From Pedobacter chitinilyticus (GTDB lineage Bacteria; Bacteroidota; Bacteroidia; Sphingobacteriales; Sphingobacteriaceae), in contig NZ_QMHN01000002.1 in NCBI RefSeq assembly GCF_003313385.1, forward strand, positions 110,603 to 134,602: DNA of 24,000 nt. The letters are read 5' to 3'. The notes beneath the pieces were generated by a model that saw only the letters and a list, made by a program, of their open reading frames with translations, searched no databases and was not told the DNA's origin. Both the position numbers and the translations under genes were made by a program. Below, piece after piece: positions 1 through 19,378 of this stretch. Each line of letters begins with the position of its first letter. Positions within the stretch are counted from its first letter, which is position 1.

Positions 1-420
1 GATACCTCTGATAAATATGGAGATGTCGTAGGAGATATCATAGAAGTATGCTCAGAGGAGCCCTATGAGCATTACCGTCAACTCGATGAAGTTGTGATCG
101 ATCCAAATCTCAATCGTATGGCCGAAGAATTTGTGGAGTTCAGCAGGGAGCTTTATGACCAATACCAGGATGAACAACTGACTAAAGAAGATATCGATGA
201 ACGGATAGCCTATCACATGGACCGTAGGTTTGTCAAGTATTCCAATACCCACGTCGTAAATATCGCTCCAGGCATCACACTACATGGATGGGGCATGATA
301 AGGCAGTATCCCCTGTTACATAAACATGACGATCCGGAAAATTACGTCAAAATCTATTGGAAGGATAGGTTTGTCTCTGATCAAATCCTTGATGAATATG
401 AAGACACCTTCTCTCTTTGA
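1..420 (+). CDS. Hypothetical protein, 5'-truncated by the window edge
   Basis: Frame 1 is open from nt 1 (DTSDKYGDVVGDIIEV...) through the listed Met at 94 to the TGA at 418-420. No motif recognised. Convergent with the SIR2 gene across a 27-nt gap. Confidence 0.4.
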   Translation, partial: DTSDKYGDVVGDIIEVCSEEPYEHYRQLDEVVIDPNLNRMAEEFVEFSRELYDQYQDEQLTKEDIDERIAYHMDRRFVKYSNTHVVNIAPGITLHGWGMIRQYPLLHKHDDPENYVKIYWKDRFVSDQILDEYEDTFSL

Positions 421-447
421 GGACGTAAGGTCAATCTGATAACCATT

Positions 448-3400
448 CTAATGAAAGTCATCTCTATCGCGCCCATCATTTAAGAATTTCTGGGATAAGC
501 CATATCTGATGTTATTGAATTTGCTTTCCTGCTTCATCGAAAGGAAATAGTTGATGTTTTCATCCGTTTCTCCCCAACGTTCCAGAACGAATGAGATCAT
601 GATAAGGTGCTCATAGACAAATGGAAGTTCCACTTCCGCCGGCATTGTCACACGATAGCGCTTTATTATCTCCAAGAGGTAAGGCGTAAACCTTCTCAGA
701 TATTTTTCGTTGAACTTGTTATAGAAAAAATAGGCAATATATTTCAGACAGGATTCCAGACATGGCTCAGATTGCAACAATAGTTTATTCAGAAGTGCAA
801 TAATATGCATTTCATAGGCCGTGCGCTCATTGCGATAGTACAATAGACTCATCAACTCATTTACAGCGCCCAATACGTTATTATGCTCCCTGCTGGTTAG
901 TCCTTCCAAAAGGTCATTATAGCTCCTCTGTTGGATATGGTGACGATCTATAAGATCAACAGTTTCATCATAACCAGGAAGTGTGTGCAACACCTGCTTC
1001 TCGTCTCTGAGAAAATCACGCATCTCTTCCAGAATGAAGGCGAACAGGTTTTCAATCATCGAAGCGCCCTGACGGACTTGCATCCACTCATTGATCTTTG
1101 CGGTGGTCTCCCGCAATTTTTGATAGATGACCGCAATTTCGGCGGGACTCCATTGAAGCCCTGTTACGGTATGGTTTTCTTCGCGGAGAGCCGTTAAGGA
1201 AATAAATTCCGAATTACCGGAAACCCCAGTGCTGTCTGGCCTGAATCCCGCATTCCAGAGGTCGCTGCTCTTAAGAATGGCATCCTTGATTTGTTGCAAA
1301 GCTCTCTCCCGTTTAAACGCACCGTCGGGTATCTTTTGGATCAGCTCATCCGTACCGATGAAGTGCAAAAATATTCGCCAGGATCTCGGATTGCTTACCT
1401 TTGAATAGTCCATATCCATCACCACGTTGCTGATTGCCAGATTCTCACCTTCAGTAAGAAGCTCCGACATGTTGCCTAACGCAAAGATCAGATTGGGTTG
1501 TTCATTTAACCTGTCGATAATAGGGAAAAAGCCCTTTACAAGTAACTTCCTAATTTCGGCTGATTTATGTTTAAGGGCATGGTTATTGGCCAATGCGTAA
1601 AGATAGTCACTCACAAGATCAGAAGGCACTTCCGATTTTTCAATGGCGTTCAAGCACGTATCGACCACTATGGCCAAAATTTTGGGAGCCTGAACATATC
1701 TGAGCGCTTTTTCCAGGAAATCGTCGCTTCTGTCGAATCTTGGTACAAATAATTTTCCATTTTTCTCCGCGTCTTTCCAATACTGTTTAAAAAATGGTTC
1801 CCAGAGCGATGGACTAACGGCAAGTACCAGCTCCGAAAGAAAAATCGGAATGCTTTTGAGATATTTTCTGGGAACATGTTTATCTGAATAGGCATGGGTC
1901 GTACTGCTTGCTATCCTTTCCAGCTCTTCGTTGGTAATATGTTCATTGTAGATATAGTCCTGGGCCAATCTTTTTAACATTTTCTCATCGCTATACTGTA
2001 GTGCATAAAAAAGCGTAGGAAAAGGATAATAAGAAAAAGATCTGCTTGCGACCAGATAAAAATCATCGCTACTAAGCCAAGCGGTGTAATTACCAACAGC
2101 AGGAAAACCGCTCTGCATAAGGAGACCTAATACCTGAAAGCTAAGTCCGTGGTCAGAATTATTGGTAAGGGTGATAGAACGGTTGAAACTTGCTTTACCA
2201 CTACCATATGGAACAATTTTTTTCCTTGCCCTTTTCAGCTGATCAATCAGAAGCGTTACATGTTGGTTTAACTCATGTAATCCCTTGGCCTTTAACTGAC
2301 GCCTTTCTTCTAGCTGCGCTCGGTCATCTCCATACCGTTCCCGAAGTCCCGAAAGGAGTTCAAGTTTATAAAGATGTTCCTGAAGATTTCTTTGAGTCTC
2401 TTCTTTTAGCACTCCCCTGGCCCGCTGCTGATCAATCAAGCTTAAAAGCCCGGCTTTATTGATTAGCCAATGACCATTGGCGCGCCAAATGGCCAACGAC
2501 CTGTTCATGCTGCTAAAATTCAGATTTATGGCATCCTTAAGCGCTACGAGATACGACAGTTCTTGCTGGATTTTTCCATTTTTGGCCACCTCCAAAACTT
2601 TGATAATACTAACAGCCCGGTCATTTTCCAGCTTCCAGATTGAATCTCGGAGATCTTCCAAAAGAAATCCAAAGTGAGCATCTCTTCCAGCTTTCTCCCC
2701 CATCCCCATTAGAAATGCAAATTCGTTCGTAGTTTTATCAAAGATCGAGGAATGCGGATAATACTGTGATCTGATCAGCTGCAATATGCCAAATAGTTCA
2801 GCTGAAGGTATCTTGGTTTTCCGGTCCCGAACATAACGAACATAGTTTTGCAGAAAATCCGCACGCACAGCATCATAGTTAAAGTGTGGTGAGGGGAGTC
2901 TGTTAAATTCTGCCAGTTCTCCGATATCAATTAGTCTTCGGCTAAAACTTTTTTCATTCGGTATTTTACGATCCATGCTTCGAATTGGCAGCTCTTTACA
3001 CAGGTTTTCATATTGGCTCCTTTTGTAAAGTTCCACAGCCGCCACTGCTCTGGCCTGCGACGCGGTTTTCCTCAAATAATCAAAAAATAGAGAAAACACC
3101 GCCTTAATGTGTAGTGCCTTCTGCGCTTTGCTCATCGTATCAAAATCCGCCGACGGATCGATATCTCCCCCGACTTCCCTTTTTAAAAAAGCAACACAAT
3201 CAGGATGGAGAATCGGGATGAAGGCAATTTGATGGTTCTCATGGAAGATTGCAGTAGCGGCATCTGCCGGCTTGTTTGATGTGCCGATCAGATAAATCTT
3301 TTTCATGCCGCCCTTATCATCGTGCTCAAGTGGTTTTTTGAAAATAATATCACGCACCCATCCAATCCACGCCAGAAAGTTCGGATCGGTACCTGAAAAA

Positions 3401-4470
3401 CCGACCAGGCAAAAAGCTTCACGAAGCAGAGAAATCCTCATAAGCTGGGTGAAAGCCTCGTGTTTAGTCGGATAGGTATCATAGTCCTCCTGACAGATAA
3501 CATAATGTTTTCTTGGATCAGTATCGAACCCAAACTTATCTTCAGGGCTTAGCCTTAAAGATCCATGTAATTTAATAATGTTTCCATTACGTTTAAGGGC
3601 CAGCTCCGCCGAATGCCGTACGAGATTTGCGCAGTCCCGTAACTGCTCTTCCACCTTGTTAAGAAGCTCCTTATGTCGATCTAATTCTGACTTCTTCCAA
3701 TATAACTCCCCATTTACCTGTCCCTGTGGAGCACGCTGCTCCGCCAAGCTCCTTTCATGCTGATCCCACTCCTCTTTTTCAGCATCACTTAGCACATATG
3801 AAAGATTTCGGATCTTATACCCCTCAACCTTCTTTTCCAGATCGGTGATCAGGTCATCTATATCCTTCTTTTTTTGGCCGAGCTCCTCAAGTTCCTTCTC
3901 GAGTGCATCCATGATCTCCCTTGTCATTTTTTTTTGTTCCGTCAGAGATCTTTCCAAGTCTTGATCGGTACAGGATTCCAAAAGATTGTCATAATTGGTC
4001 GTGAAGATGTTGTTCCATGGCAACCTGACCAACTTTTTATGCAGCTCCAGATCTTTATCAGTGAGGACTCGCTTTTTAGGTACACCGTCAAGATCATAAC
4101 AGAGATTATGCTCCTTATCAACAAACGGTGTTACCTGCTCGATGTAGTGTTCCAGTGCTTCCCTGTAGCCCATACGGTCTCTGTACAGGCTGGGCACCTT
4201 AAGGTAGCCTACTTCATCAATAAATTCATTGTACCTGTTTTCGAGGTAAGCTTTCTTTTTGCTTGCGGGTAGCTTGGTCTTTTTGAAATCCTCCTCAAAT
4301 TGTTTGCCTTTGATCTTGTCTACCATCCGATAGAGCAATTGTCCCCAACTGGGAAAGGCCGGATCAACATTCTTACTAAAGCCTGCCCCTACCAATATGG
4401 AAAGGTCTTGGCCGCTGAGATTTTTCTGAAGCTTTTCCAGATGGTGAACATAAGGTGTGTTAGAGCTCAT
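448..4470 (-). CDS. Giant SIR2-domain protein (SIR2_2 / defence-associated sirtuin-like) with a ~960-aa helical C-terminal region of unknown function
   Basis: A 1340-aa ORF. The N-terminus carries the SIR2_2 hallmark motifs in order: ILVGAGFS (aa 25-32), FPSWGQLL, IFTTNYDNLLE (aa 155-165), IIKLHGSL (aa 298-305) and CLVGFSGTDPNF (aa 354-365). The same motif set is seen in ThsA and DSR-type NADases. The C-terminal part has no motif I recognise. Confidence 0.8.
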   Translation of the reverse strand: MSSNTPYVHHLEKLQKNLSGQDLSILVGAGFSKNVDPAFPSWGQLLYRMVDKIKGKQFEEDFKKTKLPASKKKAYLENRYNEFIDEVGYLKVPSLYRDRMGYREALEHYIEQVTPFVDKEHNLCYDLDGVPKKRVLTDKDLELHKKLVRLPWNNIFTTNYDNLLESCTDQDLERSLTEQKKMTREIMDALEKELEELGQKKKDIDDLITDLEKKVEGYKIRNLSYVLSDAEKEEWDQHERSLAEQRAPQGQVNGELYWKKSELDRHKELLNKVEEQLRDCANLVRHSAELALKRNGNIIKLHGSLRLSPEDKFGFDTDPRKHYVICQEDYDTYPTKHEAFTQLMRISLLREAFCLVGFSGTDPNFLAWIGWVRDIIFKKPLEHDDKGGMKKIYLIGTSNKPADAATAIFHENHQIAFIPILHPDCVAFLKREVGGDIDPSADFDTMSKAQKALHIKAVFSLFFDYLRKTASQARAVAAVELYKRSQYENLCKELPIRSMDRKIPNEKSFSRRLIDIGELAEFNRLPSPHFNYDAVRADFLQNYVRYVRDRKTKIPSAELFGILQLIRSQYYPHSSIFDKTTNEFAFLMGMGEKAGRDAHFGFLLEDLRDSIWKLENDRAVSIIKVLEVAKNGKIQQELSYLVALKDAINLNFSSMNRSLAIWRANGHWLINKAGLLSLIDQQRARGVLKEETQRNLQEHLYKLELLSGLRERYGDDRAQLEERRQLKAKGLHELNQHVTLLIDQLKRARKKIVPYGSGKASFNRSITLTNNSDHGLSFQVLGLLMQSGFPAVGNYTAWLSSDDFYLVASRSFSYYPFPTLFYALQYSDEKMLKRLAQDYIYNEHITNEELERIASSTTHAYSDKHVPRKYLKSIPIFLSELVLAVSPSLWEPFFKQYWKDAEKNGKLFVPRFDRSDDFLEKALRYVQAPKILAIVVDTCLNAIEKSEVPSDLVSDYLYALANNHALKHKSAEIRKLLVKGFFPIIDRLNEQPNLIFALGNMSELLTEGENLAISNVVMDMDYSKVSNPRSWRIFLHFIGTDELIQKIPDGAFKRERALQQIKDAILKSSDLWNAGFRPDSTGVSGNSEFISLTALREENHTVTGLQWSPAEIAVIYQKLRETTAKINEWMQVRQGASMIENLFAFILEEMRDFLRDEKQVLHTLPGYDETVDLIDRHHIQQRSYNDLLEGLTSREHNNVLGAVNELMSLLYYRNERTAYEMHIIALLNKLLLQSEPCLESCLKYIAYFFYNKFNEKYLRRFTPYLLEIIKRYRVTMPAEVELPFVYEHLIMISFVLERWGETDENINYFLSMKQESKFNNIRYGLSQKFLNDGRDRDDFH

Positions 4471-4602
4471 TTAGTGTGGGCGTAAAAGGTTATTTGGCCT
4501 TTAAAATTATCCATTTACTTTTTGCAATCCAAATTACATTCCCTATAGGGTAACGAGACTTTGATACCCTTCGGTTTCATTTAATAAAAGTATCTTTACT
4601 TC

Positions 4603-4848
4603 ATGAAGTCAAACTTTACATTAACTGTAGCGGAACATCAGCTCGACCTTATTTCAATGAATGCAGGATGTCCTAAACTATTCCAGATTTTTGTCAATGT
4701 CGAAGGACAAAGGAAACGCTTCCATTTACAAGGTGATGGAGCAACCTATCTTTCATTTGCCAATCCAGAGGATTGTCCCCCATTTCTTTTGGCTCTCGAA
4801 AAGGACATTGCCAACATGATATTCGACCAATACAGAAAAATTAGTTAA
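4603..4848 (+). CDS. Small hypothetical protein (81 aa), first gene of the KAP NTPase operon
   Basis: The ORF has balanced, protein-like composition. It ends 19 nt before the KAP NTPase start on the same strand. No recognisable motif. Confidence 0.45.
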   Translation: MKSNFTLTVAEHQLDLISMNAGCPKLFQIFVNVEGQRKRFHLQGDGATYLSFANPEDCPPFLLALEKDIANMIFDQYRKIS

Positions 4849-4867
4849 CTCCATACAACAGCTGAGC

Positions 4868-7027
4868 ATGCAGACAGATAAAGCAATCACAAACCACACG
4901 GAGGACAAACTGAATAGAGAGATGTTTGTCAACGCATTGGCCCAGGAAATCCTCGCAATCCAGAATCGAGATTGTACAGTGATCGGTCTATATGGTAAAT
5001 GGGGGGCGGGAAAGACCAGCATTATCGGATTATTGGAACAGCTTCTGCATGAGAAGTATTATTTCACTGCCTATTTTAATCCTTGGAGATACAAATCCGA
5101 GGATATTATCCTTAGGGAACTGTTCATGAAGATAATAGAAGGCGCACGCAGCGATCGCAAGCTAGAAAGCAAATGGGAGAAACTGGGCGTGCTATTCTCA
5201 GAGTACGGTCAGTTTATTTCTCTGCCTTCTGCAAATATCAAAGGTATAAAAGTAGATTTTTCCAAGCCATTGCAAGGGCTGGTTACAGGCTTAGGAAGAT
5301 TATTTAAGGGAAAATCAACAATAGATGATAAGAAGGCCGCCATCAACGAGATTCTTGACCAACTTGCGGTGCCTCTGGTGATCTTCATCGATGATGTCGA
5401 CAGGCTTGATGTAGCTGAAATCCGTTCGCTATTTAAGCTGGTCAAACTGACCGCAGACTTTAATAAGCTAATCTATATCATTGCCTTTGATGAGGATATA
5501 GTAGCAAAAGCCTTGGCACAGAACTATGGCACCGGTGAACCTGGCGACGGCAAGGCCTTCCTGGAAAAGATAGTCCAACTGCCATTGAGGATTCCAACTG
5601 TACCCAATAAGGAACGATTTACATACACCATAAATCTTCTTAACGAATGGGCCCAATCACAAGCTTTCGAGTTTCCCGAAAAATATCAAGCGTTATTCGT
5701 CAAACATTTCAAAGATCTTCATGACAACTTTATCAAGACACCCAGGGATTCCAAACGCCTATTGAATGCCGTCTCCTTTTCCTATCAATGTCTAAGGGAT
5801 GAAGTAAATGTTTACGATATCGTTCTGCTAGAAACAATACGCATATTTCTTCCCGCGGTTTTTGACGAGCTTTTAGCGGTACAAAGCGAGCTTTTCAAGT
5901 TGCAAACGGGGGAGAACGGCTACACGATAAACAATAAAAAAAGCGATGCAGGCGTTGCTTTTGAAAAGCGTATAAACATGTATGCGCACACCCTTCCACT
6001 TATAGCTGATGTAACGGATTATCTCTTTCCCTTCAACAATCTCTTTAATCTCGGCTTTAATAGTAACAGAAGCGAAAAGATTGCAGATCTTTTCGCCCAC
6101 CAACGGGTCGCCATCCGAAGGTATTTTGACCGTTTTACCGAGTTTAAGATTGCAGGGGAAGACATTTCTGACCTAGAGTTCAAAGGTATTCTTTCCAGGT
6201 TCAACACTTTACCCTATTCGGAACTTACTGATGAAATACAACGGCTTTGCATGTTCCCTAAAAATGACATCTACCGACTGTTCCATTATTTCAGAAGTCA
6301 ATTGGAAGAGACAGGTAAGATAAACGTTGCAACCATGCTGTGTACGAAAGAACATTTCTACTTCGACAACTCATTTGAATCAAGATTTTTCAGGATGATA
6401 GACTTATCGCTAGAGCTTTTAGCCGGAGTTGGCCAAATGAAACGTATCGAGAGCCTAAGACAGATTATATTCACCTGTCCAAGCATCCATCATTCACTGT
6501 CCATCATCTATGACGCACAATATGTAAGTGATAGGCAAAGAGATGCTAAATTTCATCCAATTGAAGCACTAAAGGATATCACAAAAGAGTACATTTTCAA
6601 GATACAACGGTTGCCCTTAGCTGATTATTTTAAAAATGTCGATGATGAAAAATGTGATATCCTCTGCCATCTGATTGACCAGTACGGTGACGCAGAAAAA
6701 TTCAGGACGGAACTGATCAACTTTTTAGATCAAAAACCTGAAAACGTCATGCTGTTCATAAAATCGATGTTGCCCATGAGCTATATCAATATGTCTCCGA
6801 TTGGCCAGTATAGCAACCGCATAGATTATGACAAGTTCCGCACCATTGAACAATATGTCCGAAGGGAGGTACTTATTGAAAAATGTCTAATTGTGTACCC
6901 CGATGCATACCAAAAAATAGATATTAACCCAGATGAACGCCAAAGCATGGAAATTGATCATAAGATCATTATTCAATACCTGCTGTTTGCACGGTCTGAA
7001 CAGGCGACAGAGATGTCGGATGGTTGA
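4868..7027 (+). CDS. KAP-family P-loop NTPase
   Basis: Walker A GLYGKWGAGKTS (aa 40-51, nt 4985-5020), the KAP-typical FNPWRY just after it, and Walker B VIFIDDVDRL (aa 171-180, nt 5378-5407). A long helical C-terminal region follows. No obvious transmembrane insert lies between Walker A and B. Confidence 0.8.
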   Translation: MQTDKAITNHTEDKLNREMFVNALAQEILAIQNRDCTVIGLYGKWGAGKTSIIGLLEQLLHEKYYFTAYFNPWRYKSEDIILRELFMKIIEGARSDRKLESKWEKLGVLFSEYGQFISLPSANIKGIKVDFSKPLQGLVTGLGRLFKGKSTIDDKKAAINEILDQLAVPLVIFIDDVDRLDVAEIRSLFKLVKLTADFNKLIYIIAFDEDIVAKALAQNYGTGEPGDGKAFLEKIVQLPLRIPTVPNKERFTYTINLLNEWAQSQAFEFPEKYQALFVKHFKDLHDNFIKTPRDSKRLLNAVSFSYQCLRDEVNVYDIVLLETIRIFLPAVFDELLAVQSELFKLQTGENGYTINNKKSDAGVAFEKRINMYAHTLPLIADVTDYLFPFNNLFNLGFNSNRSEKIADLFAHQRVAIRRYFDRFTEFKIAGEDISDLEFKGILSRFNTLPYSELTDEIQRLCMFPKNDIYRLFHYFRSQLEETGKINVATMLCTKEHFYFDNSFESRFFRMIDLSLELLAGVGQMKRIESLRQIIFTCPSIHHSLSIIYDAQYVSDRQRDAKFHPIEALKDITKEYIFKIQRLPLADYFKNVDDEKCDILCHLIDQYGDAEKFRTELINFLDQKPENVMLFIKSMLPMSYINMSPIGQYSNRIDYDKFRTIEQYVRREVLIEKCLIVYPDAYQKIDINPDERQSMEIDHKIIIQYLLFARSEQATEMSDG

Positions 7028-7121
7028 AATGATGCACTCAATTTTCTATCTGTTTGAAATTACAATTATCACCTATCACACCTGAATAGTCTATCATTTT
7101 AATCCCTCACAAAAGACTTAC

Positions 7122-8558
7122 ATGGCCCTTCTAAAGACAAATCTTACACTAGGAAATCGATTTGTTATACTTGATGGCAACTACGATAAAGCGCAGCTAT
7201 CTTTTATAGCACCAGACCCTAAAGATCGCAGTAAACTTACTGTGGTTACTTATGACCACCCTGGAGAACCGATCATTACGCCTTTGGACAACTTCAGTTC
7301 GGATTACTTTCCAGACCTATTACACCCTAGAATAATCCTGACCAGAAGACAATCAGAATTACGTTCGATATTTATCAAGATCCAGCATGAACTTGCGCAA
7401 ACCCTATATGGTTCCAGTAACCGTCGGCTTACACTTAACCAAACCCTGAAGAAACTGGTTAGCCTGGGCTGCGCGGACAATTCCGAAGCCGAGGCCATGC
7501 TAATGCTCTATCTGGCAAGGGGGCTTTTCACATTTACCAAACTAAAGAAAGAGGGCTACATTTCGTTAAACAAGAACCTGCAAGGCATGGAGGACATGAA
7601 GCGGTTCCTGCATAGCATTACCGACGAGCTTATTTCAAAAAGCGACCGTATCGAGCTATTGGTCAAGCACAACGTTTCAAAGGGCAATTACAGGGAAATG
7701 CTCCTGCGCTCTGTTCTGCAGAAATATGTTCCTAAAAAATATGAAGTAGTTACCGGTTTCATCGAAGGCTGCCATCGCCAGTGTGATATCATCATCTACG
7801 ATTCGCACAATTTCTCCCCCTATTTCCGTGAAGGCGATCTTGTTGTAGTTCCACATCAATCAGTGCGTGCGGTCATCGAAGTGAAGACGACCTTGGATGC
7901 CGGTGCGCTTGAGGAGGCGCTAGACCTATTATCGGACATCTCAAGGAATTATAATGATCCTGCTCCTTTCTTTAGGGCAGTCTTTGCCTTCAAAAAGGGT
8001 AATTATAAAACAGACGAAGCCTTGGCAACGGCGGTCAAGAAGTTCTACCACCGTAAGGATGCCAAAAGCGGAAAAGACAATACGATCCATGCTCTTTTCG
8101 AAACGATCAATACCTTCTGCGTGATGGATGAACAATGCCTGGTAACCGATGTGGTCGATTATACTTTCAATGACCATTCGATAAGGCCCAGGATATATTC
8201 GGTGAGATCTTCGACGACCGATCTGAGAGTTTATTCGGCTGCATTCTTCAGGGAACTGTTTTCCTATCTGGATGTCGAAAAACGTGCTAAAAGAGTTACC
8301 AAGGATTATTTCTGGTGGCTCAACGGGGAAATGCTTTATTACCATATACTCGATCTTTACGACAGGAGTTGGAAACCCCTTACGCAATTCAAGAACGAGC
8401 ACGACTGGACCGAAGACGGCTTATGGCAACGGGTGTCCGATCTGTACAACTGGAAAGCTGGATTGGTCAGTGCACAGGATATGGAAGAAAAATATTTTGC
8501 TGAAATACTCCATCCCAGGGACCTGCAAAAGATTGCCAAAGGAGGATATCCATTTTAA
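7122..8558 (+). CDS. PD-(D/E)xK nuclease-like protein (DUF6602-like core) with N- and C-terminal extensions
   Basis: Core aa 186-262 reads SKGNYREMLLRSVLQKYVPKKYEVVTGFIEG..CDIIIYDSHNFSPYF..VVVPHQSVRAVIEVKTTLD. This gives a D...(D/E)xK arrangement (D222/D227, E253, K255) and matches my recollection of the DUF6602 pattern. Same strand as the KAP gene, 94 nt downstream. Confidence 0.6.
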   Translation: MALLKTNLTLGNRFVILDGNYDKAQLSFIAPDPKDRSKLTVVTYDHPGEPIITPLDNFSSDYFPDLLHPRIILTRRQSELRSIFIKIQHELAQTLYGSSNRRLTLNQTLKKLVSLGCADNSEAEAMLMLYLARGLFTFTKLKKEGYISLNKNLQGMEDMKRFLHSITDELISKSDRIELLVKHNVSKGNYREMLLRSVLQKYVPKKYEVVTGFIEGCHRQCDIIIYDSHNFSPYFREGDLVVVPHQSVRAVIEVKTTLDAGALEEALDLLSDISRNYNDPAPFFRAVFAFKKGNYKTDEALATAVKKFYHRKDAKSGKDNTIHALFETINTFCVMDEQCLVTDVVDYTFNDHSIRPRIYSVRSSTTDLRVYSAAFFRELFSYLDVEKRAKRVTKDYFWWLNGEMLYYHILDLYDRSWKPLTQFKNEHDWTEDGLWQRVSDLYNWKAGLVSAQDMEEKYFAEILHPRDLQKIAKGGYPF

Positions 8559-8559
8559 C

Positions 8560-9111
8560 AGTCCTCTGGCTGGAAAATACGCTATAAGCACCTTCCCTTT
8601 ACCCTATAGCGGACCTCCGATCCCCTTTCTCAGAGGTACCGTTACCAACTATTTGCGTTGACCTATGCCCGCTGCCACGCACGGGCCTGCCCCAGGCTAA
8701 GGCCATTGCGGCCAGCGGCTGATCTGCCCTTCCAAACAGACTATGCAAAGCTACGGACGGCCATTGTCCTCCGAAACTCTTCGGCGCAGTGCCTGCGCCT
8801 TGCCTTGCGGTTTCCCAAAAAAAATCTCCACCGACCGGTTCCGCCCTTTCCCGAAAGTTAGGGCGGCGGTCGGTCGTATTTTTTTCCGGAAAACTTTCTC
8901 CGGAAAATGACAGTCCGTTCCCGGGCAACGGTTTGAAAGGCCAGGCTAACGCCGCTTTTGAGCCCCACAATGACCGGGAGCCTAGTGGCCGAGTTCCCGC
9001 AGTGGTCCAAAGCGGGCAAATTGGCCACCTGAACAGCAAATAGCCTAGTAAGGGCCCGGCATCGGAGAAAGCGGGTTGGAAACCAACTGTCCGGCTACCT
9101 GAGTAAAAAGA
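8560..9111 (+). other. ORF-free, GC-rich, hairpin-dense non-coding region (3' UTR, terminator, then leader of the downstream operon)
   Basis: No protein-like ORF on either strand; the listed ORFs here are rich in G, R, P and W. Local hairpins: 8667-8686 (GCCCG/CGGGC), 8771-8784 (CCGAA/TTCGG), 8783-8799 (GGCGCAG/CTGCGCC), 8831-8873, 8886-8903 (CCGGA/TCCGG), 8915-8931 (CCGTT/AACGG), 8975-8999 (CGGGA/TCCCG), 9002-9028 (GTGG(T)CC/GGCCAC) and 9075-9087 (GTTGG/CCAAC). CCAGGCTAA occurs twice (8692-8700, 8941-8949) and TCCGGAAAA twice (8885-8893, 8899-8907). Confidence 0.4.
8817..8885. terminator. Putative bidirectional intrinsic terminator
   Basis: An A8 run (8817-8824) precedes a long GC-rich hairpin. 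CCGACC 8831-8836 pairs with GGTCGG 8868-8873, G8837 can pair with C8867, and CCGCCCT 8841-8847 pairs with AGGGCGG 8860-8866. A T7 run follows at 8879-8885. Confidence 0.55.
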
Positions 9112-9164
9112 ACGTCTGCTGGTACACCTCCAGCACTGATGAGACCTCAGGTAGGTCGAAACGT
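9112..9164 (+). ncRNA. Type III hammerhead self-cleaving ribozyme; predicted cleavage after C9116
   Basis: Stem III: ACGU 9112-9115 pairs with ACGU 9161-9164. The GUC cleavage triplet ends at C9116. Stem I: UGCUGG 9117-9122 pairs with CCAGCA 9130-9135, with loop UACACCU. Core CUGAUGA lies at 9136-9142. Stem II: GACC 9143-9146 pairs with GGUC 9154-9157, with loop UCAGGUA. Core GAA lies at 9158-9160 and A9161 pairs with U9115. Loop I ACCU (9126-9129) is complementary to loop II AGGU (9149-9152), which could form a tertiary contact. Confidence 0.8.
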
Positions 9165-9179
9165 AAACAAAAATGGCTT

Positions 9180-9617
9180 ATGCACTATTATGAACATGCG
9201 CTGCTAAGTGCACACAAATTTGGCTGCGCAATCGAAGACACCTTGCAGCTCCACAAACTGATGGATAGCTCCAAGTTCTTCTTTCCCGCCAGCCAGCACA
9301 GGTTGTTCTCGCACAACACATGGTTTGTCCATGTCCTTACCGAACTGATCGGTGACACCATTCCAAACTCCGTTAACGGCCAAAGACTATCTACGCGGGA
9401 CGTGCTGTACGAGCACCTGCGCGAAGACCATAACGGAAAGACCCCATCGCTGCAGGACTGGCTCGGCTGCCTGCACTTTGAGCTGGACGAACAGACAAGG
9501 ACCTGGTTCAACCACCCGCGGGGCAGCGACAAGAACCTGCTCAAAGAAATCAAATCACTGATCCTAAACCCCATTGACAATGAACAACCTACCCCTATCG
9601 ATGCAACAGCGATGTGA
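9180..9617 (+). CDS. Hypothetical protein (145 aa), first gene after the ribozyme
   Basis: The ORF MHYYEHALLSAHKFGCAIEDTLQLHKLMDSSKFF... has protein-like composition. Its ATG lies 15 nt after the ribozyme 3' end. No family assigned with confidence. Confidence 0.55.
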   Translation: MHYYEHALLSAHKFGCAIEDTLQLHKLMDSSKFFFPASQHRLFSHNTWFVHVLTELIGDTIPNSVNGQRLSTRDVLYEHLREDHNGKTPSLQDWLGCLHFELDEQTRTWFNHPRGSDKNLLKEIKSLILNPIDNEQPTPIDATAM

Positions 9618-10278
9618 CGAGCTCACCGCTTCTGGCGCAGAACTGTCCCTTACCTGGCAAGGTGGCGGCGACGAGGGCTGCTTTGATCTGCTACTGGACG
9701 AAAAACCTTTGGAAGAGCAGAGTGAGCTGGAACAGGAGATCATACATTTCATGGAAGAGGCCATTGGCTATGGCTCATTTGCCGGAGAATTCTACACCGA
9801 AGGCAAGCTGGTGTATAACCATATCACGAAATGTTTTGGTGGAACCGATAACTACTCCGACAGTGAAGGGGCCACCAGGGAGTGCCAGATCGCCATCCAC
9901 GTGCCCGAGCACATTTGGTTCGAGCACCTGGTTATCAACATAAGGGTCGAGTACGAAGACGCCAATCCAGAGGTCAGCATCGAGCCACGCCTGAGAAATG
10001 GCCCCCTGCCACCTGAACTTGATAGGCTGATCGCCAAATGGGAACGGTACCTTCGTGCAAAGTTCGCAACCGAGATCGACCAGTTGGAAGATTTCGAGTT
10101 TATGGCCATCGAACTCATCGCCGAGCGCTCCCAATTCACGGTGATCGGAGATATACTTCGCTTTGAGATCGATGCATTTGACTATAGCAAGTCTGTATCG
10201 AGCGAAAAGGAACTCTCTATCTACTTCACTGAAGAAGCCAAGAACCTGGCAGACCAGCAATATACCCTGCCGCTCTGA
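9574..10278 (+). CDS. Strongly acidic hypothetical protein
   Basis: A 234-aa ORF overlapping the previous gene; alternative in-frame start at 9601 (MQQRCDEL). Hand count over the ~225 aa from Met 9601 gives roughly 47 D/E against 18 K/R. Confidence 0.55.
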   Translation: MTMNNLPLSMQQRCDELTASGAELSLTWQGGGDEGCFDLLLDEKPLEEQSELEQEIIHFMEEAIGYGSFAGEFYTEGKLVYNHITKCFGGTDNYSDSEGATRECQIAIHVPEHIWFEHLVINIRVEYEDANPEVSIEPRLRNGPLPPELDRLIAKWERYLRAKFATEIDQLEDFEFMAIELIAERSQFTVIGDILRFEIDAFDYSKSVSSEKELSIYFTEEAKNLADQQYTLPL

Positions 10279-10311
10279 GCAGGTCATTATTAAACTTTCA
10301 ATTTTAAGATC

Positions 10312-11040
10312 ATGGATTTAAAACAGATTCAGCAGGCAAGCTACTATGTCAGCGGCCTGCAGGGCTTTGTACTCTCCGAGGCCATGCGCCTATGGAAAAC
10401 CAAGTTCGAAACACTCCAGGATTTCCAAAGGGAGGTGATCATCCATCACAGCCTGAACGAACTCGGAAATTTTGTTTCAGAGATGTGGGAAACGATAGCG
10501 CCCATCACCATTGCACAGGCGCTGTCAGAACAGAACCTGGAAAAGCGAAGGGTCATGTTCGACTGCATCGGCGTTGCCAAACTCTTCGCCGGCCTGGAAG
10601 CGAAACTGCTCGATAAGACAACGCTCCAGAAAGTGCGCACACGCTGGGACGAGGAAAACAAACCCTATCGGCACACCTTCGAGGACACCTATGAGCTCTA
10701 TCAGATCGATAGCGAGAAGCTCTTCGGCGTACAGCCCACCTTGCGCCAACTGACACCGGTATTTGCGGTGCGCTGCTGGTGCACGACAACCTCCAGGGAA
10801 TATTGGATCTACGTGCCCGAACTGGCAGCACTTGGTGTTCAGCGCTGGCAGCTTAAGGATGCCAAACCAGACGCGATCAGGGCCATCGCATGGACGATAA
10901 GGATCGATATCACCGAGCCCAAAAGGATCTACCGACAGGGCGATATCATCGTCGTGGAGGAATCGGAAAATTCGAGGGAAGTAGCGCCCTATCACCTAAA
11001 CAGGGAACAGTACCTGGAACTGATGTATTCGGAAACCTAA
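10312..11040 (+). CDS. Hypothetical protein (242 aa)
   Basis: A long ORF in the co-directional operon with protein-like composition. The overlapping ORFs in other frames and on the other strand are shorter and of odd composition. Confidence 0.55.
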   Translation: MDLKQIQQASYYVSGLQGFVLSEAMRLWKTKFETLQDFQREVIIHHSLNELGNFVSEMWETIAPITIAQALSEQNLEKRRVMFDCIGVAKLFAGLEAKLLDKTTLQKVRTRWDEENKPYRHTFEDTYELYQIDSEKLFGVQPTLRQLTPVFAVRCWCTTTSREYWIYVPELAALGVQRWQLKDAKPDAIRAIAWTIRIDITEPKRIYRQGDIIVVEESENSREVAPYHLNREQYLELMYSET

Positions 11041-11051
11041 AAACAATAGTT

Positions 11052-11303
11052 ATGTACACAAACAAAGCAAAAAGGCTTGTCCTTGGAGAGGGCGAGACTA
11101 TCGGGCACAAACATGTGCTGGAGTCAAGTAAAGAGATCAGCTACCGAAGGGTGGACAATTGCATCCACCTTTTCCTACAGGGCACCGGGGTGCTGACGCA
11201 CGACGAACACGACAGGATCGTGCTCAGCAAGCAGAAGTACCGAAGCTATCATCAGGTCGAATTCAATCCGATGGATGGCAGCATCAGCGAGATCTTCGAC
11301 TGA
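11052..11303 (+). CDS. Small hypothetical protein (83 aa)
   Basis: Internal ATG at 11052 (MYTNKAKRLVLGEGETIGHKH...) of the listed ORF 10890..11303. It was chosen because the upstream extension overlaps the preceding gene. A hairpin plus T-run follows. Confidence 0.45.
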   Translation: MYTNKAKRLVLGEGETIGHKHVLESSKEISYRRVDNCIHLFLQGTGVLTHDEHDRIVLSKQKYRSYHQVEFNPMDGSISEIFD

Positions 11304-11317
11304 TCGATCAATTCACA

Positions 11318-11340
11318 GGGGGCCACGGCCCCCTTTTTTA
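11318..11340 (+). terminator. Putative intrinsic terminator or attenuator inside the operon
   Basis: GGGGGCC 11318-11324 and GGCCCCC 11327-11333 form a GC stem (effectively 6 bp with a 4-nt loop), followed by TTTTTT at 11334-11339. Confidence 0.5.
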
Positions 11341-11360
11341 TTCACCTAAACTTTCAAGAA

Positions 11361-11957
11361 ATGGGACAATACTATAAGGCCGTCAACCTGGACAGGCAAG
11401 AATTCGTATCACCATATACCTACCATAGCGGCGCAAAACTGATGGAGCATTCGTGGCTGTACAGTCCGATGGTCAATGCGGTAGTAACGGCAATAGCGCC
11501 TGCCGGAACCTGGCATGGGTGCAGGCTGGTCTGGGCTGGCGACTACATGGACGAACAGCTTTTTCTAAAGGGACTGGGCAAAAGGGCCAGATCGTTCAAA
11601 ACACTTTATGACTGCTGCCAGTCCCCCGATGAAACCGATACGCCCTGTATCGCACCTGCCCAGCTAAAGATCACCGATGGCCCCGCAGGAGCTTACCTGG
11701 CCAACCATGATAAAAAACAACAGGTTGCCCTTAGCGATCTGCCCGAAGAGGACCCCAATGAAAAGGGCTGGCACATCCATCCCCTGCCACTGCTATGCTG
11801 CTCGGGCAATGGCCGTGGCGGCGGAGACTTCAGGGGCGAAAATCCATACACGGGGAGCTGGGCCGGGGACAGGATCTCGGCCGAGTACGGCCCTTTGGAA
11901 GGCTACCAGTTAATCGTCCCGGCATTCACCGAGCAGCAGGACAATCATGAACGTTAA
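11361..11957 (+). CDS. Hypothetical protein (198 aa)
   Basis: ORF MGQYYKAVNLDRQEFVSPYTYHSGAKLMEHSW... in the co-directional operon. No recognised motif. Confidence 0.5.
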   Translation: MGQYYKAVNLDRQEFVSPYTYHSGAKLMEHSWLYSPMVNAVVTAIAPAGTWHGCRLVWAGDYMDEQLFLKGLGKRARSFKTLYDCCQSPDETDTPCIAPAQLKITDGPAGAYLANHDKKQQVALSDLPEEDPNEKGWHIHPLPLLCCSGNGRGGGDFRGENPYTGSWAGDRISAEYGPLEGYQLIVPAFTEQQDNHER

Positions 11958-11968
11958 AAATTACTGCG

Positions 11969-12505
11969 ATGGATACCAACATCAAAATTGCCCAGGCAAG
12001 TATCTACGTGGGCACCTACTTCAAATACAACTCTGGTTCGCTCCAAGGTAAATGGATGGACCTTTCGGAATTTTCTACTAAGGAAGAGTTCTACAGGGCG
12101 GCCTACGAACTGCACAAGGATGAGCAGGACCCCGAACTGATGTTCCAGGATATGGAGCACATTCCCGATAGCCTGGCCAGCGAAAGCTGGCTGTCGGCAA
12201 AATTCTTTACCGTTCGCGATGCATTGGAGGGCCTGGAAGAAAAGCTGCACGAGCCCTTTTTCATGTGGTGCAACAACGACCACTATGATCTTTCCAAGGA
12301 GGACATCGATGAGCTGATCTCTTCCTTTGCCGACTGCTATCAGGGGCTATACGATAGCCAGGAGGATTTCGCGCGCCAGTACGTGGCGGAACATCATCAG
12401 CTAAGCGAATTTTCGCTCAACTACTTCGATTATGAAAGCTATGCCCGCGACCTTTTCTGCGAGAGCTTCTGGTACGATGGCGGCCATGTATTCACCAACA
12501 GTTAA
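11969..12505 (+). CDS. ardA: Antirestriction protein ArdA
   Basis: The N-terminus IYVGTYFKYNSGSLQGKWMDLSEF..EEF and the ELMFQDMEHIP segment match the ArdA family pattern as I recall it (iYv..l..YN.G.l.G.W.dl ... EE..i.D.E..p). The protein is acidic, of the expected size (178 aa), and sits in a conjugative leading-region context. Confidence 0.75.
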   Translation: MDTNIKIAQASIYVGTYFKYNSGSLQGKWMDLSEFSTKEEFYRAAYELHKDEQDPELMFQDMEHIPDSLASESWLSAKFFTVRDALEGLEEKLHEPFFMWCNNDHYDLSKEDIDELISSFADCYQGLYDSQEDFARQYVAEHHQLSEFSLNYFDYESYARDLFCESFWYDGGHVFTNS

Positions 12506-12515
12506 GCTTCTACAT

Positions 12516-12995
12516 ATGCATCGCGAACGATTTTCTCCTGAACGGCTGAGGCTGATCCGGAGGCTAAGGAGGGCACGCAGGCTCTACCGGAAGATGCCAC
12601 TGTTTGCCTTTGACCTCATGCGTGCCGAAGACCCTAGCTACACCTATGAAGAATTCGTGGATGACCTCCGTCTTCGAAACAAACCGAAGGTGCGCAAAGC
12701 CAAAGATCAGGCGGTCAGCTTTGGCAGGTATTACCGCATTAGAAAGCTTTTGGCGGGCTATCATGCCAGTGGCGATACAGAATTACTGCTTGCAGCTTCA
12801 AAGCTCTGGCAGCGCCTTAGAAAGCCCTATGTGGTGGTAGCCAAGCTGAAGGACGAACGATTCGAATTTCATTTTCCACCAAAGGTTCCCATCGAGCGCA
12901 TCGAAACATTCACCCTTGACCTGCGGCATTGCAAAACCATAGCGCAGGTTCAGGAATGCTACAGGCGTTTCAGCTCAACGATCAACCTTTACTAA
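12516..12995 (+). CDS. Hypothetical basic protein (159 aa)
   Basis: Internal ATG at 12516 (MHRERFSPERLRLIRRLRRARRLY...) of the listed ORF 12432..12995. It lies just after the ArdA stop, so the gene does not overlap ArdA. Confidence 0.45.
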   Translation: MHRERFSPERLRLIRRLRRARRLYRKMPLFAFDLMRAEDPSYTYEEFVDDLRLRNKPKVRKAKDQAVSFGRYYRIRKLLAGYHASGDTELLLAASKLWQRLRKPYVVVAKLKDERFEFHFPPKVPIERIETFTLDLRHCKTIAQVQECYRRFSSTINLY

Positions 12996-13006
12996 TCAAC
13001 AATATC

Positions 13007-13393
13007 ATGGAAACAAAACCATTAGCACTCATGAAGGCCACCGAACGGGGTGCCCTTTTGGCTGATCTTTTTCCCGAGGAGATCGACAGCCTGATCAATT
13101 TCATCGATGGCATGTGCCTGACCATGCTCGAAGAGAAAGCGCATGCCATCAGCCTTGCAAAGAAAATGGATATCCCCTATGGCAGGTGGATCAGGGCGGT
13201 GAAGAAGAGCAAGAAGATGATCGACACCTACAGGCCCAAACAGGAGCTCAGGTTCCTGATGATCCTTTTGATGGGCGGGGATGACCTGGAGTACTTCAAC
13301 ATGTACTGCGCCAATTTGATGGTCACCACCCGTAGTTCCGAAAGCCATTCGGAGCAGTGCTTCCACCACGCCATTCACATGCTCTTTGACTAA
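13007..13393 (+). CDS. Hypothetical protein (128 aa)
   Basis: Internal ATG at 13007 (METKPLALMKATERGALLADLF...) of the listed ORF 12929..13393, starting after the previous stop. Confidence 0.45.
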   Translation: METKPLALMKATERGALLADLFPEEIDSLINFIDGMCLTMLEEKAHAISLAKKMDIPYGRWIRAVKKSKKMIDTYRPKQELRFLMILLMGGDDLEYFNMYCANLMVTTRSSESHSEQCFHHAIHMLFD

Positions 13394-13404
13394 CGGTCCT
13401 GGCC

Positions 13405-14349
13405 ATGGAAGCGCTGACCATACTTTCCTTCGGTGCGGGCCAGGACAGTACCTGTATCCTGTACAAGATCATCTATGATGCGGCTTTCAGGGAGCGTTAT
13501 GTAAACGGAAAATTGCTGGTGGTCATGTCGGACACCGGCAACGAGCATCCGCACACCTACAGGCATGTGCGTTATATCGGGGACCTGTGCAGGGAGCACG
13601 GCATCCCCTTCCATTTCCTGCGCAGCTCAATGGGATACCATCCCCGAACCTGGCCATCGCTCCAGGGGCAGTTCATTGCCAATTCGACCATCATGTCGAT
13701 GATGTTTCCAAGGACCTGCACCGACAACCTGAAGATCAAACCTATCTATGCCTTCATCGACGACTACCTCGGACGGACCTATTACGGTTACACAGATCCG
13801 CAGATCGCAAAGGGCAAGCAGTTCATCAAGCGTTTTGCGGCCCAGCACGGCAAGATCAAAATGATCCTGGGCATAGCCGCCGGTGAAGAGGGCCGGATCA
13901 AAAGTTCGGCAAGAAAGCAGCTCAGGGCCTCACAGCTCAAACTCTTCACCAGAGCCAGGCGACAGATCCCCCAATGGATGGAACTTGCCATCGAGAAAAG
14001 CTACCCGTTGGTCGAACTGGGCATGGACAGAAGGGCATGCCAGCAGTATATCACCTCTACGGGCCACGCCGTCCCCTATCCTTCCAACTGTATGATGTGC
14101 CCTTTTCTGAGCAAGCCCGAAATGTTGTGGCTCTACAGGAACCTTCCCGATGAGTTCGGCCGATGGGTGCAGCATGAACGGCGCAAGATCAGCCGAAGTG
14201 CAGGCCGGCGCATCAACCACGGGGTGAAGGGAGAAAAAACACTACCGGAAATTTTACGGGAAGCCATCGAGCAATTCGGCCACCTGACCAACACTGAACT
14301 GGACGAGCACAAAATGAGCCATGGCCACTGCGTGCGCTCCAGTTTCTAA
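13405..14349 (+). CDS. PAPS-reductase-like PP-loop ATPase family protein
   Basis: N-terminal PP-loop variant SFGAGQDS (aa 8-15, nt 13426-13449) followed by VVMSDTGNEHPHT, typical of the PAPS reductase / DndC / IbrA-like superfamily. C-terminal Cys residues include CMMCPF. Confidence 0.7.
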   Translation: MEALTILSFGAGQDSTCILYKIIYDAAFRERYVNGKLLVVMSDTGNEHPHTYRHVRYIGDLCREHGIPFHFLRSSMGYHPRTWPSLQGQFIANSTIMSMMFPRTCTDNLKIKPIYAFIDDYLGRTYYGYTDPQIAKGKQFIKRFAAQHGKIKMILGIAAGEEGRIKSSARKQLRASQLKLFTRARRQIPQWMELAIEKSYPLVELGMDRRACQQYITSTGHAVPYPSNCMMCPFLSKPEMLWLYRNLPDEFGRWVQHERRKISRSAGRRINHGVKGEKTLPEILREAIEQFGHLTNTELDEHKMSHGHCVRSSF

Positions 14350-14371
14350 AACACCATAAAAATCCAACATC

Positions 14372-16222: not shown

Positions 16223-16242
16223 AGGGACCCGAAGGTCCCTTC
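16221..16242. terminator. Perfect 9-bp hairpin between convergent stop codons
   Basis: GAAGGGACC 16221-16229 pairs with GGTCCCTTC 16234-16242 around a CGAA loop. It lies between the ParB stop (16220-16222) and the minus-strand stop (16245-16247). There is no clear U-tract, so termination is inferred from position only. Confidence 0.45.
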
Positions 16243-16244
16243 CA

Positions 16245-16526
16245 TTAGCCCTTAAGCTGTTGGATGGCATTGAGCTTCCTTGCCAGCTCGGTAAGGCCCG
16301 ATTTTTCCATAAACCCGTCCACGAGCTCCCGCAGTTCTTGGAGCGATTCGGCGGGCATGGCCTCCATCATACCGGTGCCATCTTTTGCATCCAGGCCGCG
16401 CTCGACCACCTGCGAAAGCAACAGGACCATTTTGCGCGAAACCTTTACATCGATGCGCACGCTTTCGTTCATGCCCGGGATACACAACAGTGTATCATAG
16501 AGCAGCTGTTCATTCTTGTTAGCCAT
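16245..16526 (-). CDS. Small hypothetical protein (93 aa), the only minus-strand gene in the backbone block
   Basis: ORF MANKNEQLLYDTLLCIPGMNESVRIDVKVSRKMVLLLSQVVERG... has protein-like composition. It is divergent from the primase gene across 16527-16664. Confidence 0.5.
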   Translation of the reverse strand: MANKNEQLLYDTLLCIPGMNESVRIDVKVSRKMVLLLSQVVERGLDAKDGTGMMEAMPAESLQELRELVDGFMEKSGLTELARKLNAIQQLKG

Positions 16527-16664
16527 AATCTCAATCTTAAATCAACTTCACCATGCAAAGCTATCAAAATGCCCGAGCACCCACCCGTACCATTTTGGTA
16601 CAGGTTGCCCAAATACCGGTTATGCTGGATAATTTCGTATCACTAGAACAGAGGGGAGGAAAAA

Positions 16665-17546
16665 ATGTGCAGCGCAAAAAATAACAGGATCACCTGTAAA
16701 CAGGCAAGGGAAATCGATCTGGTAGATTTCCTTTCCAACATCGGGATCGAACCGGCCAGTGTAAAGGGCCACCAGTTCTGGTACCACTCCCCTTTCAGGG
16801 ACGAACAGACCCCCTCGTTCAAGGTCAACGGCGCCATCAACAGGTGGTACGATTTCGGGGATGGCACCAATGGTAGCCTGATCGACCTTGGCATCAGGCT
16901 AAAAAACTGTAGCGTCAGGGAATTCCTGCAAATGCTCGAAAGCGGAACATTCACCCACTGTCCCCATCGGCCCGGTGAGACGAATGTTGATGGACCAGCC
17001 ATTGCTGTCCTCAGCAATACTGCGCTAAGCTCGCCCGAGCTGGTCTCCTACCTTAGCTCGAGAAAGATCACATTGCAAGTGGCCAACCGATACTGTAAGG
17101 AGATCCATTACAGCTGTAATGGCCGAAACTATTGCGCCGTAGGTTTTGCCAACCGTTCCGGCGGATTTGAGCTGCGCAGCAAAAACTTCAAGGGGACAGT
17201 TTCTCCGAAGGACTACACACTGCTTTGCCAGGGCCGAGCCGAGCTTGCCGTATTCGAGGGTTTCATCGACTTTATGAGCTACCTGCTGATCATGGGGAAA
17301 GATCCCCAACAGGATTACCTTATCCTCAATTCGCTTGCTTTCTTCCAAAGGGCAATGGAATGCATGATGGGCTATAGCCGCGTGCAGCTTTGGACCAATA
17401 ACGACGATCGCAGCAATGAGGTCGTGAGCATGGCCCTGGGGCATTCCGACATCTTTGTTGACCAGCGGAACTTCTTCTTTGGGTACAACGATCTCAACGA
17501 CATGCTCAACAATAAACCAATTGTTCAACGCATAAAAAAAAGCTAA
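16665..17546 (+). CDS. Toprim-domain primase-like protein with a degenerate CHC2-like N-terminus
   Basis: The N-terminus HSPFRDEQTPSFKVNGAINRWYDFGDGTNGSLIDLG parallels the zf-CHC2 primase motif but lacks the Cys ligands. Toprim-like segments are LAVFEGFIDFMSYL and LWTNNDDRSNE. It lies next to the mob genes. Confidence 0.7.
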   Translation: MCSAKNNRITCKQAREIDLVDFLSNIGIEPASVKGHQFWYHSPFRDEQTPSFKVNGAINRWYDFGDGTNGSLIDLGIRLKNCSVREFLQMLESGTFTHCPHRPGETNVDGPAIAVLSNTALSSPELVSYLSSRKITLQVANRYCKEIHYSCNGRNYCAVGFANRSGGFELRSKNFKGTVSPKDYTLLCQGRAELAVFEGFIDFMSYLLIMGKDPQQDYLILNSLAFFQRAMECMMGYSRVQLWTNNDDRSNEVVSMALGHSDIFVDQRNFFFGYNDLNDMLNNKPIVQRIKKS

Positions 17547-19352: not shown

Positions 19353-19378
19353 CACCAACATTTAAGGGAGGAAAAATC

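Follow-up and report, generated by a model that had tools for sequence, protein, structure and literature searches.

A coiled-coil hairpin at the relay-loop position of a Dsr2-like SIR2 protein from Pedobacter chitinilyticus and related Bacteroidota

The Dsr2 (defence-associated sirtuin 2) gene family was reportedly described by Gao et al. in 2020. Dsr2 is defined by the models NCBIfam NF041819 and PADLOC PDLC02184 and is exemplified by WP_017895821.1, encoded on a Clostridium tyrobutyricum plasmid. The reference protein used here is DSR2 of Bacillus subtilis strain 29R (WP_029317421; PDB 8WY8, 8K98, 8WKS and others), in which the catalytic residues N133 and H171 are spaced by 38 residues (Garb et al. 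preprint), in agreement with the PDB alignment. The DSR2 loop W143-Y148 is located at the SIR2 domain's interface with the middle domain (MID), and its replacement with a glycine-serine (GS) linker abolishes tail-tube-dependent toxicity and hydrolysis of nicotinamide adenine dinucleotide (NAD+) by the enzyme (NADase activity; PMC10981675). This loop enters a pocket in the MID of the partner protomer within the X-shaped DSR2 dimer, and activation is strongly impaired by mutation of the loop or of the pocket (PMC11087589). Here we describe a 24,000-nucleotide (nt) stretch of Pedobacter chitinilyticus DNA (contig NZ_QMHN01000002.1, positions 110,603 to 134,602; hereafter, the window), in which a gene at 448-4470 encodes a 1340-residue Dsr2-like SIR2 protein carrying a long helical hairpin at the position of this loop.

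The gene and its protein are organized as follows, with positions given in window coordinates or in amino acid residues (aa) and with helices assigned from AlphaFold2 (AF2) models and their predicted local distance difference test scores (pLDDT).

448-4470, minus strand: Dsr2-like SIR2 protein gene, a complete open reading frame (ORF) with an ATG start, 1340 aa plus stop
3964-4470, minus strand: N-terminal half of the SIR2 domain (aa 1-169), with GAGFS and TTNYD inside; Rossmann strands and helices in the AF2 model
aa 28-32: GAGFS, the glycine-rich NAD loop
aa 157-161: TTNYD, with Asn159 at nt 3994-3996 and Asp161 at nt 3988-3990, minus strand
3799-3963, minus strand: ascending hairpin helix (aa 170-224), an AF2 helix with pLDDT 94-98
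3787-3798, minus strand: turn of the hairpin (aa 225-228) in the AF2 model, inside the hypervariable tip region (aa ~215-240)
3637-3786, minus strand: descending hairpin helix (aa 229-278), an AF2 helix
3151-3636, minus strand: C-terminal half of the SIR2 domain (aa 279-440), with KLHGS and GFSGxDPNF inside
aa 300-304: KLHGS, with His302 at nt 3565-3567, minus strand; GFSG follows at aa 357
451-3150, minus strand: C-terminal all-alpha solenoid (aa 441-1340), the presumed adaptor and sensor region, homologous to that of Dsr2

The preliminary description of this stretch recognized a SIR2_2-type protein with all the expected motifs, and GAGFS, TTNYD, KLHGS and GFSG are indeed located in the translation. 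Both peptide strings that it quoted are found, nt 3586-3978 correspond to aa 165-295 as it had said, and the motif positions give the 143 residues that it counted between Asn159 and His302. The spacing of about 40 residues that it gave for ThsA and DSR2 also agrees with the 38-40 measured: ThsA uses N113 and H153 (PMC11087589), spaced by ~40 in PDB alignments, and the spacing is 38 both in the C. tyrobutyricum Dsr2 annotated by the Prokaryotic Genome Annotation Pipeline (PGAP; residues 129 and 167) and in a Bacillus Dsr2-like protein. N159, D161 and H302 show no variation in an alignment of 55 homologues, and the GAGFS glycines vary little or not at all; the equivalents of N159, D161 and H302 are retained even in relatives with the variant motif TFNYD. 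The C-terminal half of the SIR2 domain (aa 279-440) is the best-conserved stretch of the protein. The Pfam SIR2_2 model (PF13289) scores 46.3 bits against a gathering threshold of 24.5, with the match at aa 292-376 covering profile positions 37-109 of 141; the match is confined to the second half of SIR2_2 because the insert splits the domain.

The inserted segment was modelled by AF2 as part of aa 1-470, using the 55-sequence alignment (mean pLDDT 92.3; predicted template modelling score, pTM, 0.85). The model has a Rossmann-type SIR2 fold, from which the helices at aa 170-224 and 229-278 project out and return (pLDDT 90-98). The AlphaFold check of this part of the monomer yields a confident antiparallel two-helix hairpin. 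The extra segment comprises ~105-110 residues, at aa 170-278 in the AF2 model and aa 174-277 as a clade-specific alignment block, rather than the ~130 aa first proposed. Conserved hydrophobic columns are found at 172, 176, 180, 183, 187, 190, 194, 197, 201, 204, 208 and 211 in the ascending helix, and at 242, 245, 249, 252, 256, 263, 270, 273, 277 and 280 in the descending helix. In the family alignment their 3-4 spacing in both helices corresponds to heptad positions a and d, and the other hairpin columns are charged and variable. Aspartate, glutamate, lysine and arginine together make up 44% of the insert of this protein, 37% of family inserts on average and 28% of whole proteins; its description as charged and heptad-like holds. 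Columns at the tip (aa ~215-240) are gapped, of high entropy and hypervariable, and nowhere else do sequence and length vary so much. The insert is accordingly modelled as a two-stranded antiparallel coiled-coil arm, whose length, estimated from those of its helices, would be of the order of 8 nm. Such an insert is absent from ThsA, B. subtilis DSR2 and Dsr2, consistent with the first view of a catalytic core split by a coiled coil. PDB matches to the insert (prefoldin beta, Rad50, GCN4 and others, E 0.09-1) were regarded as generic coiled coils and set aside for questions of function.

The insertion site was located by aligning the query jointly with three homologues that bear the insert, three relatives that lack it, two forms of intermediate length, C. 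tyrobutyricum Dsr2 and a DSR2 fragment. In the PDB alignment, the active-site region of B. subtilis DSR2 reads TTN133YDNLIDTAC-W143KRGKY148-FSVI...KVH171G. The whole hairpin lies after the conserved Cys at the end of the helix following TTNYD and before the next beta-strand, which is the place of WKRGKY 143-148 in DSR2. As aligned, the arm grows from the sole SIR2-domain element for which a relay of activation between protomers is known. The suggestion that the insert is an oligomerisation or autoinhibition arm therefore gains a concrete basis, as the arm arises at the W143-Y148 relay loop.

Kinship with Dsr2 is indicated by sequence profiles and by structure. The PADLOC Dsr2 model matches the protein with E = 5e-40. 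The Dsr2 equivalog NF041819 is its only NCBIfam match, at 133.2 bits, far under the cut-off of 1400; other members of its clade score 113-135 bits, and 1190 bits are reached by L048, a relative from Bdellovibrionota. A profile of the 55 homologues aligned by hhalign with C. tyrobutyricum Dsr2 gave a probability of 99.9% and E = 3.9e-33 over 859 columns (query 299-1236 and Dsr2 159-1170). In a Foldseek search of the PDB with the N-terminal model, B. subtilis DSR2 chains take all of the top 50 places (E = 4e-10, probability 1.00), with template modelling (TM) scores of 0.72-0.76 to the SIR2-only DSR2 chains. Of the PDB sequences, a profile of insert-less SIR2 domains matches B. subtilis DSR2 best (E = 1.3e-27), ahead of ThsA; DSR2 was not reached among them by phmmer with the query or by the profile of the insert-bearing family. 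No viral structure matched the N-terminal model at E <= 0.001 in Foldseek, and phage records searched with tblastn yielded a single short match to SIR2. Matches of tblastn to plasmids were restricted to the SIR2 core and served solely to obtain an annotated Dsr2.

The region following the SIR2 domain was likewise modelled by AF2 (aa 441-1340) and consists of helices only (pLDDT 87.9, pTM 0.88). The ~960 residues that had been called uncharacterised helical sequence are therefore helical as stated, but they can be placed by their homology with the C-terminal region of Dsr2. As this region is Dsr2-homologous, it is not a new sensor: the novel C-terminal sensor proposed at first is a generic alpha-solenoid of no new fold, and the top 50 Foldseek matches to its model are generic HEAT and karyopherin solenoids with TM ~0.2. 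A likeness to DSR1 or DSR2 had also been suggested; the Dsr2 half of this proposal is supported by PADLOC, hhalign and Foldseek, and the DSR1 half is not supported, with no DSR1 model among the PADLOC matches at E <= 0.1.

The hairpin is widespread among relatives of the protein. A protein search yielded 857 relatives, of which the nearest 120 were used for measurement of the Asn-His spacing. These are about 1150-1340 aa in length and align nearly over their full length, with spacings of 90-158 (median 139), and every one of the 120 has the hairpin; alignments to homologues cover 98-100% of the 1340-aa protein. The hairpin is not a chance feature, given this conservation and the pLDDT of 90-98. 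Several hundred uncharacterised Bacteroidota proteins carry the arm. An identical 1340-aa protein is present on contig SAYW01000002.1 of NCBI assembly GCA_004025525.1.

The spacing is bimodal in a scan of one genome per species, which gave 44 loci, almost all from Bacteroidota. Spacings of 113-144 are found in proteins with at least 28% identity to the query, from Chitinophagia, Sphingobacteriia, Flavobacteriia, Cytophagia and some Bacteroidales. Spacings of 37-42 are found in proteins with 22-26% identity, from Bacteroides, Prevotella and Segatella, Paraprevotella, Rikenellaceae, Cloacimonadota, one Spirochaete and one Bdellovibrionota genome; the hairpin is absent from Firmicute relatives too. 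An exhaustive search of 50%-identity representatives with query aa 1-470 gave 1683 proteins at E <= 0.001, 232 of them at E <= 1e-30, and the spacing was surveyed in 224 relative sequences, about 180 of which have the hairpin: it is 30-49 in 45 and 90-169 in 177, 173 of the latter being within 100-160. Outlying spacings are 68 in one sequence and 178-221 in three; protein P0217, at 94, falls within the 90-169 bin.

In an approximate neighbour-joining tree, calculated with the insert masked and with Firmicute Dsr2 as the outgroup, the insert-bearing proteins form one clade, with one further insert-bearing sequence (L019) near its base and the insert-less Bacteroidales as its neighbouring clade. 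This topology would imply one gain of the hairpin, possibly followed by one loss. In a column-by-column comparison, no block of 8 or more residues other than the hairpin (query 174-277) separates the two groups, and their median lengths are 1289 aa with the insert and 1166.5 aa without. Judged from these alignments, the hairpin is a marker of the clade. Comparison of the insert with characterised SIR2 families, which bears on its claimed distinctness, found it shared only within this uncharacterised Bacteroidota clade. Hairpins of other sizes occur at the same loop in P0209, P0217, P0165, P0158 and P0162; the TFNYD-type relatives among them have spacings of 68 and 94, and the remaining three have 178-221. 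As hairpin sizes vary at one loop, the site looks like a hot spot of helical expansion rather than the product of a single event.

The most likely function of the protein, as judged from these comparisons, is that of a Dsr2-type, phage-triggered NAD+ hydrolase that causes abortive infection, and its assignment as a Dsr2-type defence NADase is probable. We infer that it would act as a stand-alone enzyme in which the N-terminal SIR2 NAD+ hydrolase is kept inactive until the ~900-aa alpha-solenoid binds, most likely, a phage protein made during infection, and that this binding would switch on NAD+ depletion. The arm would be an enlarged trans-protomer contact that extends along, or clasps, the neighbouring protomer, helping to build the oligomer and coupling the movement of the neighbour's sensor to the catalytic pocket. 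Such an enlarged element for trans-protomer coupling and oligomerisation is favoured because of the insertion site of the arm; taken by itself, the trans-protomer coupling role is tentative. For the combined reading, a Dsr2-type defence NADase with a coupling role for the arm, we estimate a probability of roughly 45%.

Several observations weigh against a coupling arm that docks on a neighbouring protomer. No second segment of at least 8 residues that was co-gained with the hairpin, and might serve as its docking site, is found in the comparison of the two groups. The AF2 models are of separate monomer halves (aa 1-470 and aa 441-1340). No DSR2 chain is among the top 50 Foldseek matches to the C-terminal model and no specific match to the DSR2 MID or C-terminal domain (CTD) was obtained; the X-shaped dimer geometry therefore may not carry over. 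In addition, no part of the protein evolves faster than the hairpin. In pairs at least 50% identical overall, identity is 71% and 80% in the SIR2 halves and 59% in the C-terminal region, against 45% and 54% in the hairpin arms and 34% in the tip; where the C-terminal region is 24-35% identical, arm identity is 13-22%. The variable, charged surface looks more like that of a solvent-exposed rod than one docking on a conserved partner. The hairpin keeps its length and heptads but not its surface, and thus fits a rod whose geometry matters; this speaks against an interface that is tightly docked and conserved.

A rod of conserved length and variable surface is also suited to a steric role, and the arm might be an autoinhibitory brake, lying over the NAD+ pocket or sterically blocking the SIR2-SIR2 stacking or filaments that activate related SIR2 effectors, and being displaced when the sensor binds its trigger. 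The insert is inside the catalytic domain, between both catalytic residues, and activation by filament formation is reported for the Thoeris ThsA and Avs5 SIR2 effectors (10.64898/2026.03.01.708072; PMC11897194). These precedents are ThsA and Avs5 and not Dsr2-type proteins; moreover, insert-less sisters of the same architecture presumably stay off without an arm, and in no model is the arm near the pocket. A brake is regarded as unlikely. We are similarly doubtful that the hairpin constitutes a regulatory module of bacterial immune sirtuins of an undescribed kind, which could be a lever arm, grown from the allosteric relay loop, that passes the movement of the sensor mechanically across protomers, or an independent tentacle whose hypervariable tip senses phage or traps inhibitors. 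If this were true, the short, medium and long hairpins at the same loop would mark an evolvable 'antenna' site in Dsr2-type enzymes.

Variability of the tip in sequence and length raises the related idea of a second recognition element, in which the hypervariable tip would bind a phage component, or act as a decoy for phage inhibitors, and so alter or broaden sensing. The variation of hairpin size across the wider family (spacings of 68, 94 and 178-221) resembles that expected under arms-race pressure, and the insert profile weakly resembles the arms of prefoldin and Rad50. Relaxed constraint, however, fits the variability of the tip equally well, the PDB similarities are generic coiled-coil matches at E ~0.1, and the large solenoid already supplies a sensor; a recognition role is quite unlikely on balance. 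Still harder to sustain is a hairpin that is a tolerated decoration of a surface loop, with no regulatory role. Its rapid evolution, the varying length of the same loop among related proteins and the existence of relatives without the insert would all be in keeping with decoration, but ~100-150 residues with conserved heptads are kept in 120 of the 120 nearest homologues and across several Bacteroidota classes, and the site is that of a loop which B. subtilis DSR2 needs for its function. That the protein does not deplete NAD in defence, and has another SIR2-fold activity (such as ADP-ribosylation or deacylation) or another cellular role, could be read from an NCBIfam score far below the Dsr2 equivalog cut-off, but is very improbable in view of its SIR2_2-type catalytic residues, its best structural and profile matches, which are the DSR2 and ThsA NADases, and a defence-island and conjugative-element context that indicates defence.

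Within a Bacteroidota conjugative element, the SIR2 gene belongs to a block of defence genes. The other features of the window are as follows.

94-420, plus strand: C-terminal part of a PLDc_2 (phospholipase D/Nuc-like) gene, 311 aa, which runs off the window start and is convergent with the SIR2 gene
4603-4848, plus strand: 81-aa ORF with no family match, preceding the KAP NTPase gene
4868-7027, plus strand: KAP-family P-loop NTPase, 719 aa, with PifA as the best PADLOC match (E = 4e-65), divergent from the SIR2 gene
7122-8558, plus strand: DUF6602/PD-(D/E)xK protein, 478 aa, with the domain at aa 158-273 and flanks of ~150 and ~200 unassigned residues
9180-21367, plus strand: co-directional conjugative-element genes (DUF6915, ArdA, ParB-like, MobA/VirD2 relaxase, YWFCY-type coupling protein)
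11969-12505, plus strand: ArdA
22436-23365, plus strand: HamA (Hachiman) homologue, Pfam E = 2e-57

The GC content is ~0.40-0.45 at 1-8600 (the defence block), 0.50-0.55 at 8600-21000 (the conjugative backbone) and ~0.40 after 21500 (HamA), steps which suggest that cargo of different origin was inserted in an integrative and conjugative element (ICE). The genome continues beyond the PLDc_2 gene with DnaE2-like and ImuB-like genes (L006). The ParB-like protein of the conjugative run has 616 aa, and several ORFs of 200-314 aa in 9180-21367 have no Pfam match. The HamB helicase expected beside HamA would fall at or past the window end. Scans for sigma-70 promoters and terminators gave background levels, with a model ill-suited to Bacteroidota, and no tRNA gene was found in a tRNA scan.

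Across 45 loci, no neighbour family recurs beside the SIR2 gene, except in a few near-identical loci of the Prevotella group. With no recurring neighbour, the SIR2 protein is taken to act alone. A functional link with the PifA-like KAP NTPase or the DUF6602 nuclease was considered and rejected, because neither recurs beside homologues. The DUF6602 domain resembles NucC-type and CRISPR-associated nucleases, and the protein may be a separate, stand-alone defence nuclease. In a Bacillus paramycoides plasmid (L002), a 'P-loop NTPase fold protein' is encoded from 4677 onward, after an insert-less 1286-aa Dsr2-like SIR2 protein (34-3894); the adjacency of SIR2 and NTPase genes there and in the window was judged coincidental, as no such pairing recurs in the 45 loci. 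At another locus (L003), homologue P0005 adjoins a 477-aa TIR_2 protein (10155-11588, minus strand) and a Tox-HNH-HHH protein, which make up a further neighbourhood of defence or toxin genes, one not shared with other loci.

Signalling from the sensor to the SIR2 domain in DSR2 has so far been pinned to one short loop in one model protein. The clade provides a natural experiment, as the relay loop is enlarged in several hundred proteins and insert-less sisters and intermediate lengths are at hand for comparison. Structure determination or dissection of one member would test the generality of the trans-protomer relay in Dsr2-type enzymes and how far it can be re-engineered. The analysis also defines a large, Bacteroidota-specific Dsr2-like family far under the Dsr2 equivalog threshold, which matters for cataloguing the defence systems of gut and environmental Bacteroidota. 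Literature searches turned up neither a SIR2 effector carrying a coiled-coil insert nor a Bacteroidota DSR family, and in public records the proteins go by 'SIR2 family protein' or 'hypothetical' alone.

A long coiled coil inserted in an enzymatic domain and serving as a regulatory toggle is known from the middle domain of ClpB/Hsp104, which is unrelated in fold and function and is an analogy only. No sequence or structural evidence links ClpB/Hsp104 to the arm, and it serves simply as a precedent for an arm that regulates an enzyme. With ThsA, the protein shares a SIR2 domain of the same subfamily, and direct phmmer matches flank the insert on both sides. ThsA, however, has a C-terminal SLOG domain and a ThsB partner, whereas the present protein has an alpha-solenoid and no partner of the ThsB type: no SLOG domain is matched in the query, the PADLOC ThsA models match the SIR2 part only, and no TIR gene (ThsB) is among the window neighbours.

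The protein and Dsr2 share the catalytic motifs of an N-terminal SIR2_2 domain and a homologous long helical C-terminal region, and both are encoded by a single gene without a fixed partner, located on mobile elements and in defence islands. They differ in that identity is ~20%, the Asn-His spacing is 143 in the query and 38 in Dsr2, the Dsr2 model has no insert positions so that its hidden Markov model (HMM) match breaks there, and the family of the query is almost confined to Bacteroidota. Like B. subtilis 29R DSR2, the protein has a SIR2 domain and, after it, a presumed alpha-helical adaptor and solenoid sensor, and the catalytic Asn and His are equivalent. Unlike it, the protein has a hairpin of ~105 aa where DSR2 has the six-residue W143-Y148 loop, and a C-terminal region of ~900 aa where that of DSR2, which is triggered by the tail tube protein, is ~700 aa and gives no specific sequence or Foldseek match. 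A further comparison is offered by the insert-less Dsr2-like proteins of Bacteroidales, Cloacimonadota and a Spirochaete (among them L025 from Bacteroides sp., L040 from Segatella salivae, and L029), which align with query aa 7-1321, have similarly weak Dsr2 model scores and are closest to the insert-bearing clade in the masked neighbour-joining tree. These sisters differ from the query in their identity of 22-26%, spacing of 38-42 and length, which is shorter by ~120 aa. Overall, the enzyme type and its architecture are already known, and what is new is the arm and its position at the relay loop.

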